Shown: one piece after another, positions 10,230 to 62,670 of the stretch
Numbering within the stretch: position 1 is the stretch's first letter
Layout: every line of letters begins with the position of its first letter
IMG/VR virus record: IMGVR_UViG_3300029288_007054
Span: 26,446 to 90,445 of that record
DNA length: 64,000 nt
From: a virus
Lineage: Duplodnaviria > Caudoviricetes
Direction: 5' to 3' (one strand)
The notes under the pieces: model-generated
What the model was told of the DNA's origin: nothing
Seen by the model: only the letters and a program-made list of their open reading frames with translations
The model's database searches: none
Position numbers and translations under genes: made by a program

Positions 10230-10390
10230 TTTACTACCTCCCCTAAAATACCCCTTAAAAGGTCTTCTATGTGTTCGGGTAGGGTTTGGTCTAGCTCTTC
10301 CTTTATAATCAATTGTGCGTCAAGGTGATGCATTCTTAAGTTTTCTATCATGGCTTTAGCTTCCTGCGTTATATTGACTTCTACTAACAT
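10226..10390 (-). CDS. 54-aa leader ORF translationally coupled to the HNH gene (MLVEVNITQEAK...)
   Basis: Manual translation; GGGAG SD; GTGA overlap with the HNH start. Confidence 0.65.
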   Translation of the reverse strand: MLVEVNITQEAKAMIENLRMHHLDAQLIIKEELDQTLPEHIEDLLRGILGEVVK

Positions 10391-10545
10391 GGCGGTTCAC
10401 TCCCTAGAAAAAGCAGACCCCTTAGCATTATTACTATCTGATGAACCGCCAAGCCCGACAGGTAGTTACTAAAGGGTCTACTTATTATTCTATTTTAATT
10501 TACTAATACTAACAGACTTTGGCGATTCATCTGTATATATTATAC
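10388..10545 (-). promoter_or_regulatory. structured cis-regulatory leader (long hairpin plus alternative pseudoknots) with TGTATAAT promoter
   Basis: Stem 10412-10425/10469-10482; loop segment 10441-10452 complementary to both 10389-10400 and 10519-10530; -10 at 10539-10544. Confidence 0.7.
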
Positions 10546-43466: not shown

Positions 43467-43493
43467 AAGATAATTATACAAAAAAGAGGAGAT

Positions 43494-44456
43494 TTAAGAG
43501 AACATATTGTTTCTGATTAATTGATAATCATTTTTAGTCAATTTATAATTAATAAATTTAAAATTAGCATGCAAAACATCATGAACATACCTTCTTTTTT
43601 TTACGATATTCCTAAGATAACTGATATAGTTTATTTTTGATTTCTTATGAAAACCAGTTACCTCTACATAGGTATTATCTAGTGGAAAGTAAAAGTCATA
43701 GCGACAATAACCAATTCCGGGGCCATATCTTTGATCATGAATAAAAAATTTTCTTTCATTTTTAAATTTTAAATACCAATAAGCTTCAACTTTAGAAGAA
43801 CAAAGGGTGCCATCCCTTAGCACTATTTTTTTACATTTAGGACAACTATTGCCGTTAATTCGACTATAAACCGCTGCCTGCCATTCATAATCACATTTTG
43901 AACATTTCCACCACATCTTTTGATGAGAACTATAGGGAACCTCGCATGCACCTATCTGATTTTTAAACAAGTGAAATTCTTTAGCTAAATCAGGGTATTT
44001 TGTTTGAAGAGAATTACACTTGGGACAATTGCCATGCCCCAGAAGTCTATTATAAATTGATGCAGACCATTCATAAGAACAAATGGAGCATCTCCACCAA
44101 TATTTATTAATAGAATGACCTACTTCGATAGGATCGATTTTGTTCTTATCGTAGCTCCATTCTTTTAACAGCTCTGGACGTTGTGATACGAAAGATTGAC
44201 AATAGGGACAATTAGCGCTATTTTTTATATTTCTAAGTCTAGATTTAATGCCATTTTTTAATGTTTTAATATATCTAAATCCGATTTGAGCCATCCATTC
44301 AAAACCACACTTAGAGCATCTCCACCATACTTTTTTTCTACAATTTATTGCAACATCGTTGGGAGTTAAGGTATTCTTATTTTGATTCCACTCTTGGGTC
44401 AACAACGGCGAGTTAAGAGAAAGTCTATTTTTATCTGTTATGACATTAGATCCCAT
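43494..44456 (-). CDS. zinc-ribbon-repeat protein with C-terminal PD-(D/E)XK-like nuclease (homing endonuclease-like)
   Basis: Three WW.CS.C..EW.A...CP.C repeats, then RYDFYFP..NTYVEVTG. Confidence 0.75.
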   Translation of the reverse strand: MGSNVITDKNRLSLNSPLLTQEWNQNKNTLTPNDVAINCRKKVWWRCSKCGFEWMAQIGFRYIKTLKNGIKSRLRNIKNSANCPYCQSFVSQRPELLKEWSYDKNKIDPIEVGHSINKYWWRCSICSYEWSASIYNRLLGHGNCPKCNSLQTKYPDLAKEFHLFKNQIGACEVPYSSHQKMWWKCSKCDYEWQAAVYSRINGNSCPKCKKIVLRDGTLCSSKVEAYWYLKFKNERKFFIHDQRYGPGIGYCRYDFYFPLDNTYVEVTGFHKKSKINYISYLRNIVKKRRYVHDVLHANFKFINYKLTKNDYQLIRNNMFS

Positions 44457-44587
44457 ATCTCACTTTTAGACAACAAACCCTTAAACGACTATAAGTTAGA
44501 TTCATTGCCATGAGATCTAGTTAGGAAATCGAATAAGGGTCTGTCTTAATATTTTTTACTAAATCTCATGGCATATATATTATACCA
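44457..44587 (-). promoter_or_regulatory. pseudoknotted 5' leader with extended -10 promoter
   Basis: TGG-TATAAT at 44579-44587; helix 44506-44520/44559-44573; crossing helix 44474-44483/44534-44543. Confidence 0.65.
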
Positions 44588-44613
44588 TAAGAACCTGTAA
44601 AATTCCTTCATTT

Positions 44614-45351
44614 TTATGATTCATTTGTAAAGGCATACCAAGCAATTCCTGTTCTTTCATTACCATTCATGTCTGTCACTATAAACATTGGGAAACAATA
44701 CATGTCTACGCCTCTTACTGCGACATATCCCCTAGCAATAGCCATAGCTTTAGCTGCCTTACCGATGGTAGCATTGCCAAAACATCTTATAACAACTTCT
44801 TTGTTCTCTTCCAATGAGTGCGCAATGGCTCCAGCCAGTTTTTTAACATTACGCTTCCTATCTTCTGGAAGGATATCTTTCGGATCAGCTTTTACCATTA
44901 AAATACTTTTACATTTATCAATATCAACGCTCTTTTTGTCTACCATCTTTTCCGAAGCAAAAGCGACAAAAGATATTCCGGTTAATTCGTTTTCTCCCAT
45001 TTTTGTGGTGATAAACGCTGGAGAGCAATCAAGCTGAAGATTTTGAACCTCTATATAGCTTCGTGCAATAGCAAGTGCCTTAGCTGCCTTACCAATAGCG
45101 GCATTACCAAAACATCTTACATTAATTTCTCCCTTGGCCCTAAGGGAATGGCTAATGGCCCCAGCTAGCTTTTTAACGTTTCTCTTACGTTCATCAGGAG
45201 TGATATCTGGCGGATCTGCCTTAACTTTTAAGCAATTAACAATTTCTCCTTCGTTAAGATGTGATTCGTCCACTGGCACTTCGTTGACTAATTCTTTGCT
45301 AATTTCTTGTTCATCATTACTTACATTTATTTGTTTATCGTTTGTGTCCAT
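44614..45351 (-). CDS. tandem SpoVS-domain protein
   Basis: Two copies of VKKLAGAI.HSL...FGNA.IGKAAKA.AIAR.Y...C.P.F...G.E.TGI. Confidence 0.88.
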   Translation of the reverse strand: MDTNDKQINVSNDEQEISKELVNEVPVDESHLNEGEIVNCLKVKADPPDITPDERKRNVKKLAGAISHSLRAKGEINVRCFGNAAIGKAAKALAIARSYIEVQNLQLDCSPAFITTKMGENELTGISFVAFASEKMVDKKSVDIDKCKSILMVKADPKDILPEDRKRNVKKLAGAIAHSLEENKEVVIRCFGNATIGKAAKAMAIARGYVAVRGVDMYCFPMFIVTDMNGNERTGIAWYAFTNES

Positions 45352-61044: not shown

Positions 61045-61408
61045 TGGTGGAGATGCGGAAGAGTCGAACTTCCGGTCTTCAAAGTAATAACTTCAATCTT
61101 CTACATGTTTAGTCAGCACTTTCTTTTGCCCCGACAGGCCTCACCAAGATTTTTTACAAGGGCACCATCGTATCTTGTTAACCCTATAGCAACTAATCAG
61201 GAGCAGTTGCTAACTCCGTTCCTAGTAGTAATTAGTCGTACTCATCCCCGCCACTAGTATCCAGAGATTTTCCTATCGCCACTATTAGGCAGCGAGAGCT
61301 AGGGACTTTTCAGCACCTATATTTTGGAATGCTTTTATACTGGCCAACATTACCATTCCAGTACATGCCGCTTGAGCCATTTTTCTCTGAATCGAACCAC
61401 ACATCCCC
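61045..61408 (-). ncRNA. ssrA: transfer-messenger RNA (tmRNA), 364 nt, tag (A)AEKSLALAA
   Basis: 5' GGGGATG pairs with 3' CATCTCC (G3:U70), then A-CCA; T-arm GGAAG-TTCGACT-CTTCC; ATAGGT-GCT resume context; tag ORF 61285-61314 ending GCC-TAA-TAG. Confidence 0.95.
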
Positions 61409-61431: not shown

Positions 61432-61881
61432 TTACTTCTTTTTAAAGCCCTTATTTTCCTCTTTATATTCTAAAGCTGAGCATATAGAACAAGATCCATC
61501 TCCCACCATCCCATGTTCACAGGTATGCGCCTGTTCGGGAGCAAATGCATCTTCAGGCTTATCAGGATAAATTTCTCTATAGACATTATACACTCTTTCC
61601 ATATTAGTGTCATTAACTTTTTCTGCCGTATTTTCATCAACCTTGCCACATTTCTTACAAACCTTAAAAATCAACAATGGAACAGGGAAACCACCTACCG
61701 AATCTTTCCATTCTTCATGAGGACAAACATCATAGCCATATTCTAGAGCTAAAAACTCCGATGGTTTTATTCCTTTAGCCTTAGCAGCATCACGAAAAGA
61801 AATTCTGTTACCTATCCTTTCGTCTCTAGCCTGCCTTCTTCTTGCAAGCTCATCATCAAGCTCTTTGCCATATAATTTCAC
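61432..61881 (-). CDS. hypothetical protein with HTH-like and Cys motifs
   Basis: 149-aa ORF, coupled. Confidence 0.6.
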   Translation of the reverse strand: MKLYGKELDDELARRRQARDERIGNRISFRDAAKAKGIKPSEFLALEYGYDVCPHEEWKDSVGGFPVPLLIFKVCKKCGKVDENTAEKVNDTNMERVYNVYREIYPDKPEDAFAPEQAHTCEHGMVGDGSCSICSALEYKEENKGFKKK

Positions 61882-62594: not shown

Positions 62595-62670
62595 TGGAGG
62601 CTCTGACGGGAGTTGAACCCGTAACAGTCTGATCTAGAGTCAAACGCTCTACCAATTGAGCTACAGAGCC
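62595..62670 (-). tRNA. amber suppressor tRNA (anticodon CUA), 76 nt, encoded CCA
   Basis: GGCTCTG/CAGAGCC acceptor, GCTC/GAGC D-stem with GG, TTTGA-CTCTAGA-TCAGA anticodon arm (CTA at 62635-62637), ACGGG-TTCAACT-CCCGT T-arm, U73. Confidence 0.93.

Follow-up and report, generated by a model that had tools for sequence, protein, structure and literature searches.

Introduction

Homing endonucleases need to be expressed without harm to the host phage and without disturbance of neighboring genes. To our knowledge, the only solution worked out to date is that of T4, in which a hairpin is combined with an internal promoter. Related logic is found in attenuators of the trp type, which choose among alternative helices (1:2, 2:3, and 3:4). 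In T-even phages, transcripts of I-TevI, I-TevII, I-TevIII, segB, and Aeh1 mobE carry a hairpin that sequesters the RBS, and the genes are also read from an internal middle or late promoter (PMC2988022). This hairpin arises only on read-through RNA, because the late promoter sits within the hairpin (PMC2988022). T4 mobE and segF have 5′ intrinsic terminators that curb the read-through reaching the nuclease gene (PMC2988022, "Regulation by transcript processing"), and I-TevI represses its own late promoter, as part of the autorepression described for T4 intron endonucleases (PMC2988022).

The locus analyzed here lies in a 64,000-nt stretch of phage DNA (the window), whose parent record is 90 kb long with an estimated completeness of 48%. 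As in the T-even systems, a selfish nuclease with its own promoter is embedded in a host transcription unit. The likeness is predicted to go further: an inhibitory structure would form only on upstream-derived transcripts, where it would cover the translation start, and transcripts from the nuclease's own promoter would escape it. We think it somewhat likelier than the contrary that the RNA in question, which we term el44, is a cis-acting 5′ leader of a homing-endonuclease cassette that senses the origin of its transcript.

Results

A structured element ahead of a nuclease gene

All genes in this part of the window are on the minus strand. The stop codon of a tandem-SpoVS gene (44616-44614) and the ATG (44456) of a 320-aa protein are separated by 157 nt. 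The features mapped in and around this interval, with its two helices designated P1 and P2, are as follows.

44599..44609, minus strand: conserved left block of the cassette, GAAGGAATTTT, beginning 5 nt past the tandem-SpoVS stop
44581..44602, minus strand: strand A″, overlapping the -10 element and present only in RNA reading in from upstream
44579..44587 (44587-44579), minus strand: extended -10 promoter-like motif TGGTATAAT, with a predicted +1 at about 44573-44571
44558..44573, minus strand: strand A, the P1 5′ strand, UGCCAUGAGAUUUAGU, forming 16 bp with 44521-44506 (-26.3 kcal/mol)
44534..44545, minus strand: strand B, the P2 5′ strand, GACAGACCCUUA, within the P1 loop, forming 12 bp with 44483-44472
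44506..44521, minus strand: strand A′, the P1 3′ strand, ACUAGAUCUCAUGGCA, pairing with A
44466..44483, minus strand: strand B′, the P2 3′ strand, UAAGGGUUUGUU (44483-44472), running into a U-rich stretch
44447..44457, minus strand: strand A2, a diverged copy of A across the start codon, UAUGGGAUCUA, pairing with 44519-44509
43494..44456, minus strand: free-standing nuclease gene, 320 aa, encoding DUF4379 Zn-ribbons and a C-terminal PD-(D/E)XK-like domain
43473..43480, minus strand: promoter-like motif TGTATAAT at the right edge of the cassette, just past the nuclease stop and before a uracil-DNA glycosylase gene

The tandem-SpoVS protein (window 44614-45351, minus strand; also L119 and L018) contains two PF04232 domains.

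A first-pass annotation of this DNA had described an H-type pseudoknot starting at the TSS predicted from TGG-TATAAT, and the paired strands that it placed are there. The promoter motif is found on the minus strand where it had been placed, and the 15-bp helix falls within the 16-bp P1 (44573-44558/44521-44506), which includes one G-U pair. The loop pairing reported between CAGACCCTTA (44543-44534) and TAAGGGTTTG (44483-44474) extends to 12 bp (44545-44534/44483-44472), and the distance to the start codon is as had been given, with the ATG 17 nt past 44474. P1 and P2 are interleaved, in agreement with the H-type topology. The G-rich core of B′ is followed by UUUGUUGU, and the B:B′ duplex has an energy of about -16.3 to -16.8 kcal/mol. 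Besides A, the A′ strand has two alternative partners, 44505-44497, in the apical part of a long hairpin, and the start region at 44457-44447. Two strands that the annotation did not contain, A″ on the 5′ side of +1 and a sequence resembling A at the AUG, are treated below.

We then compared these helices with what chance would produce. The MFE z-score of el44 is -2.9, and 1 of 200 shuffles folded as well. The claim of a discrete structured RNA that begins at the predicted +1 and is tied to a mobile nuclease is supported. When both strands of the 90-kb genome were scanned for interleaved helices (minimum lengths of 10 bp for P1 and 8 bp for P2), the largest matches were el44 (16 + 12 bp) and el2 (13 + 11 bp), a second leader copy introduced below. 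The remaining matches combined a P1 of 10 to 11 bp with partners of 8 to 9 bp, and there was one 13 + 8 pair; the third copy in this phage, el10, was not returned at these thresholds. The promoter-like motifs are strongly biased by strand: TGTATAAT occurs 26 times on the coding strand versus 2 on the other in this genome (G000), and KGTATAATAT 18 times versus 1 in the 186-kb relative G001, where the reversed control gave 0. Judged by these counts, the promoter-like motif is a real class, and the start site of el44 itself is a prediction.

The nuclease is of the homing-endonuclease type

The product of 43494..44456 matches Pfam PF14311 (DUF4379) with an E of 3e-45 and has three to four treble-clef Zn-ribbons. 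In the C-terminal domain, D254, E265, T267, and K287 are invariant among 18 homologues. The AlphaFold model of this domain (pLDDT 90) gave weak Foldseek matches, the best with an E of 0.014, and all of them were PD-(D/E)XK nucleases (Bax1, R2 RLE, arenavirus cap-snatching endonucleases, XisH, I-Bth0305I, and Vsr). By sequence, the sole solved relatives are DUF4379 proteins of mitoribosomes. The nearest nuclease homologue, P0002, is 67% identical and is found on a 1169-bp contig; another, P0001, is encoded on a 148-kb contig. Pfam and PHROGs returned DUF4379 and endonuclease families only, with no IscB or TnpB domains. As modeled, the el44 nuclease is a free-standing homing-endonuclease-type enzyme and would not be RNA-guided.

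A family of leaders with covarying helices

This phage has three copies of the leader, and homologues of the el44 nuclease led to at least four more (L002, L043, L044, and L046, among the matches listed). The six sister copies are as follows.

el10, window 10388-10545: leader, 54-aa micro-ORF, and HNH endonuclease
el2, genome 2155-2320, outside the window: leader followed by a micro-ORF paralogous to that of el10 and a GIY-YIG endonuclease
L002, IMG/VR contig UViG_3300029286_002355: leader, micro-ORF, and Zn-ribbon nuclease
L043: leader, micro-ORF, and Zn-ribbon nuclease, arranged as in L002
L046: intact leader, with the micro-ORF shortened to 12 codons (L046:274-312)
L044: leader without a micro-ORF, like el44

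The same leader architecture therefore precedes three unrelated nuclease types, namely, GIY-YIG, HNH, and DUF4379 plus PD-(D/E)XK-like. In all seven leaders, the order is promoter, A, B, A′, B′, U-rich run, and start codon, and the loop lengths range from 14 to 37 nt (L1), 12 to 27 nt (L2), and 11 to 23 nt (L3). The micro-ORF of the family is acidic, 53 to 61 aa long, and located between leader and nuclease. There is none in el44, where B′ ends 17 nt ahead of the nuclease ATG. The copies can be arranged as a series of micro-ORF loss in which the RNA is kept, from L046, with its 12-codon remnant, to L044 and el44, with none.

Kinship between el44 and the element at 10388-10545, which the first-pass annotation had proposed from a shared helix motif, is borne out by a common promoter block, a common architecture, and the AGACCCTT/AAGGG motif, with AGACCCTT, part of strand B in both elements, recurring at 10472-10479 (minus strand) inside el10. 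TATAATATATA, ~25 nt upstream of TATAATATATA, and AGACCCTT are common to both; TATAATATATA and its upstream ~25 nt are shared by all three copies in this phage, and TATAATATATA of el44 is identical to that of el2 and el10 and in the same register. The shared promoter block of the family, AAGGxxTTTT ... TGTATAATAT directly ahead of A, is present in el44. AAAGGA/T..TTTT, 25 nt before TATAAT, is in the same register in el10, el2, and L002, and the 11-mer GAAGGAATTTT is present in identical form in L046.

The helix sequences are unrelated between copies but complementary within each copy. Across the seven leaders, the cognate A:A′ energy was -22.2 versus -9.1 kcal/mol for non-cognate pairs, and that of B:B′ was -17.4 versus -8.2 kcal/mol. 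The same held for A′ with the start region (-18.9 versus -10.4 kcal/mol) and for the upstream segment with A (-12.9 versus -7.5 kcal/mol). For el44, the cognate A:A′ energy of -26.3 kcal/mol compares with -1.9 to -6.8 kcal/mol when its strands were combined with partners from other copies; for B:B′, the corresponding values were -16.3 and -1.7 to -15.6 kcal/mol. Five leaders could be aligned in register with MAFFT, and el44 and L044 were compared by cognate versus non-cognate energies instead. Pairing holds in 97.8% of the cells of this five-sequence alignment, with both sides altered in 9 pairs, a result reached by 0 of 500 shuffles; in slid controls, pairing was only 29 to 58%.

Covariation of the kind suggested as a check on the upstream regions of homologues is seen in the five aligned leaders; el44 escapes the five-leader covariance model. 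This model (R1, built from the five micro-ORF leaders) scores its members at 95 to 128 bits. It gave no match at el44 at E <= 10 and 12.3 bits (E 0.96) at L044. Since R1 misses el44, this leader is assigned to the family by its promoter block, its architecture, and the AGACCCTT/AAGGG motif that it shares with el10. By these sequence features, el44 is a putative diverged member of a leader family of at least seven copies and the third and most diverged copy in this phage. One R1 match in G001 (61669-61782, plus strand, E 0.09) was rejected, as it has neither a promoter nor helices of the leader type.

At Rfam gathering thresholds, only tmRNA and tRNA were found in the whole window; these are a phage tmRNA (84 bits) and a tRNA, at 61045-61408 and 62598-62670, respectively, both on the minus strand. 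At E <= 10, the region 44400-44650 returned only noise (miRNA and snoRNA models) and no HEARO match. A blastn search of the el44 locus against GenBank phages gave no match, and neither the SpoVS-like protein nor the nuclease, each used singly as a query against IMG/VR, found relatives. The promoter-block pattern had 14 matches in IMG/VR, of which only the G001 cassette is real, and an IMG/VR search with the micro-ORF alignment found nothing beyond G001.

These results bear on two readings in which el44 would not be a leader that senses transcript origin. The first is that el44 yields a trans-acting RNA of ~105 nt ended at the U-run, either a HEARO/OMEGA-like cofactor or guide, as the first-pass annotation had envisaged, or an antisense RNA to el10 acting through AGACCCUU/AAGGG. 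P2 together with the U-rich run could terminate a short RNA, a structured RNA adjoining a mobile nuclease gene is also what is seen with IscB and TnpB, and el44 B pairs with el10 B′ almost as well (-15.6 kcal/mol) as with its own B′ (-16.3 kcal/mol). However, the nucleases concerned are protein-guided homing-endonuclease types without RuvC-/IscB-type or TnpB domains, and the element is a 5′ leader that is interchangeable among GIY-YIG, HNH, and Zn-ribbon nucleases. The loops are unconserved, there is neither a guide-like segment nor a conserved scaffold, Rfam gives no HEARO/OMEGA match, and common descent of el44 and el10 explains the shared 8-mer more simply. The HEARO/OMEGA analogy is accordingly not supported, and we regard a trans-acting RNA of either kind as very improbable.

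The second is a riboswitch that senses a ligand or temperature through a pseudoknot fold. A pseudoknot topology beside the start codon is common among small riboswitches, and el44 has this topology next to its start codon as well as the MFE z-score given above. No Rfam family was matched even at E <= 10 beyond noise, though, and the downstream genes encode selfish nucleases and not metabolic functions. Because the unpaired regions vary in length and sequence between copies, there is no conserved riboswitch pocket. We give this reading hardly any weight.

Two further strands complementary to the P1 arms

We next describe A″ and A2, on which an origin-sensing leader would depend. Within A″, UCUUAUGGUAUA (44592-44581) pairs with 44575-44564, and UUUUAC (44602-44597) pairs with 44559-44554. 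The A″:A duplex of el44 has an energy of -17.1 kcal/mol, which was matched by 0.07% of shuffles and 0.2% of genome windows (p about 0.001). A2 pairs with A′ over 11 bp, including 2 G-U pairs, at -13.6 kcal/mol, an energy equalled by 1.3% of shuffles and 0.9% of genome windows (p about 0.01), and is identical to A at 10 of 14 positions. The A2 pairing of el44 is weaker than that in the five micro-ORF sister leaders, in which A recurs, exactly or almost exactly, between the SD and the AUG. In these five leaders, the upstream segment complementary to A overlaps the -35 to -10 spacer. The cognate pairing of the upstream segment with A ranks top of its column in five of the seven leaders, and el10 is at most 0.3 kcal/mol off. 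L044 has neither A″ nor A2 and retains P1, P2, and the U-run. A reading of the A...A2 direct repeat as a terminal repeat or target-site duplication was rejected, given that the inverted A′ lies in the middle of the element and not at its ends and that A″ is a fourth matching strand.

A″ and A form a 12-bp imperfect palindrome centered on the -10/+1 region, and this raises the question of whether the dyad acts as DNA. It could be an operator that binds a repressor or the nuclease, with the helices serving as the terminator of the upstream gene and the features being independent of one another. T4 intron endonucleases are known to repress themselves through operators that overlap their promoters (PMC2988022), and the P2 arms look like ordinary terminators of these phages. 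Several observations speak against this explanation. Both mismatches in the palindrome are of the G-U type and hence wobble-compatible, which is relevant only in RNA. A is matched by A′ and A2 as well, which an operator does not need, and the interleaving of A′ inside P2 is retained in seven of seven leaders. Moreover, three unrelated nuclease families with the same design would not share a DNA-binding specificity. An operator is on these grounds improbable, and we return to the leader as an RNA.

Predicted folding and a candidate switch

Folding was computed as a pseudoknot-free partition function, which cannot hold P1 and P2 together, and the predicted P1/P2 alternation is in part a consequence of the energy model barring the joint fold. 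In RNA beginning at its own start, P1 had a probability of 0.6 to 0.96. With 30 to 100 nt of upstream RNA included, P1 went to 0 in six of the seven leaders, and A″:A reached 0.6 to 0.9 and B:B′ 0.8 to 0.99; in read-through RNA of L044, another upstream pairing still disfavors P1. The read-through fold of el44 has an advantage of 10 kcal/mol over the best structure in which P1 is retained, and in the own-promoter RNA of this leader, P1 and P2 are at most 2 kcal/mol apart. A′:A2 of el44 has a low probability in the nested model, and a rough estimate suggests that this pairing is weak and would not beat the apical hairpin.

In seven of seven leaders, the segment from B to B′ is predicted to fold into a single long, irregular hairpin that has A′ located apically and a 3′ side rich in U. 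It has an energy of -28.7 kcal/mol in el44, and the z-scores of its interior range from -0.7 to -2.9 across the leaders. Its arms, AAAAGCCC...GGGCUUUU, resemble those of ordinary terminators of these phages. A simple terminator scan did not call this hairpin, because its loop exceeds 8 nt. The U-run of el44, UUUGUUGUCU, is poor and lies partly within the stem. This genome has no ordinary terminator in the interval from the SpoVS-like stop to the cassette promoter. In G001, a standard terminator hairpin, with a TGTATAATAT promoter behind it, follows the homologue of the SpoVS-like gene (64% identity).

We propose the following mechanism for an origin-sensing leader. RNA started at the leader's own promoter, TGGTATAAT, would lack A″, and A would pair with A′ as P1, perhaps alongside B:B′ in an H-type pseudoknot. 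In this state, the start codon would be free and the nuclease made. In RNA reading through from the SpoVS-like gene, A″ would fold onto A across the -10 region. A′ would then be released into the terminator-like B..B′ hairpin, onto A2 over the AUG, or both, and read-through transcripts would in this way be terminated before the nuclease gene or left untranslated. The direction could also be the opposite, with P1 bringing B and B′ together and so favoring termination. In either form, the proposal would agree with one alternative offered in the first-pass annotation, a translational or expression control element, which fits the strands, the covariation, and the predicted switch.

The principal competitor is a static H-type pseudoknot, in which P1 and P2 form on every transcript and act as a 5′-terminal stabilizer or a fixed brake, with no sensing of origin. 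The loop lengths let both helices coexist in all seven leaders, P1 begins at the predicted +1, and a rough sum of the helix energies would place P1 plus P2 ahead of either helix alone. In addition, only P1, P2, and the U-run are kept in L044. A static fold, however, gives no reason for A″ and A2 to covary with A and A′ in five to six of the seven leaders, el44 included, or for the interior of B..B′ to be able to fold onto A′. Because A″ and the A-like copy at the AUG exist, a switch is likelier than a static pseudoknot, which we consider unlikely. Given that L044 lacks A″ and A2 yet has P1, P2, and the U-run, the leader may have a core function without the relay.

A broader version of the proposal is that the leader is a general sensor of transcript origin. 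It would use a four-strand relay (A″/A/A′/A2) running through an interleaved terminator-like helix, switch between the pseudoknots A:A′ + B:B′ and B:B′ + A′:A2, and be portable across GIY-YIG, HNH, and Zn-ribbon/PD-(D/E)XK nucleases with or without a micro-ORF. We put this generalization forward tentatively and consider it rather doubtful.

Comparison with T-even control and with attenuators

The predicted switch departs from T-even control in how the inhibitory structure would be avoided. T4 own-promoter transcripts miss the 5′ arm of the hairpin, whereas those of el44 hold A, A′, and A2, all of which are downstream of +1, and only A″ is upstream. The el44 leader is accordingly predicted to work by relay, with the upstream-only A″ capturing A and freeing A′. 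Further differences are that pairing over the AUG in el44 involves the nuclease's own first codons and not the SD, that the family has an extra interleaved helix with a U-run, and that it is portable across three nuclease families.

As in mobE and segF, a terminator-like hairpin with a U-run in front of a free-standing endonuclease gene could cut nuclease transcripts. In T4, the terminators are simple hairpins, have loops of 4 nt, and are placed within the coding region, whereas the stem arms of el44 are 50 nt apart, enclose an A′ that has alternative partners, and lie in the 5′ UTR. The el44 cassette also follows the T4 pattern in which a promoter behind the inserted endonuclease restores the next gene, here TGTATAAT at 43480-43473.

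With the trp-type attenuators, the leader would share a series of helices that exclude one another, with an upstream strand picking the antiterminator-like or the terminator-like fold. Unlike in attenuators, the input would be the presence of a 5′ strand, set by promoter choice, and not a ribosome position, a protein, or a ligand. In addition, the terminator base B:B′ is interleaved with P1 and shares no nucleotides with it.

Compared with the solution of T4, that of the leader family, which covaries across copies, matches no Rfam family, and would be built from a strand relay and interleaved helices, would be both more elaborate and more portable. el44 indicates that direct attachment of the leader to a nuclease gene is possible, the final relay strand being re-created within the first codons, and L044 that loss of the outer relay strands leaves a core of P1, P2, and U-run in place. 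Should this be confirmed, the leader would offer a compact natural part for making gene expression promoter specific and a marker for mobile nuclease cassettes in uncultivated large phages.

Other arrangements ahead of nuclease genes

Further arrangements were noted in these phages. In the G001 cassette, a second TGTATAATAT is located in the 3′ end of the micro-ORF (L002:2442-2477), 26 nt before the nuclease ATG, and by its sequence the G001 nuclease may have an additional private promoter downstream of the leader. A GIY-YIG-type endonuclease gene of the same genome (L006; G001:C1:33984-33993, minus strand) has its own TGTATAATAT promoter and a 33-nt unstructured leader; because this leader is unstructured, a structured leader is not obligatory for homing endonucleases in these phages. 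Other Zn-ribbon nuclease paralogues (L003:950-1180, L045:230-430, and L047:1290-1500) are preceded by an ORF of ~55 aa and have neither the RNA leader nor the acidic micro-ORF. This ORF has a ribbon-helix-helix-like look (e.g., ...EKEHEVLETLREKYAINISKCF...) and would provide these cassettes with a front end of a second kind.
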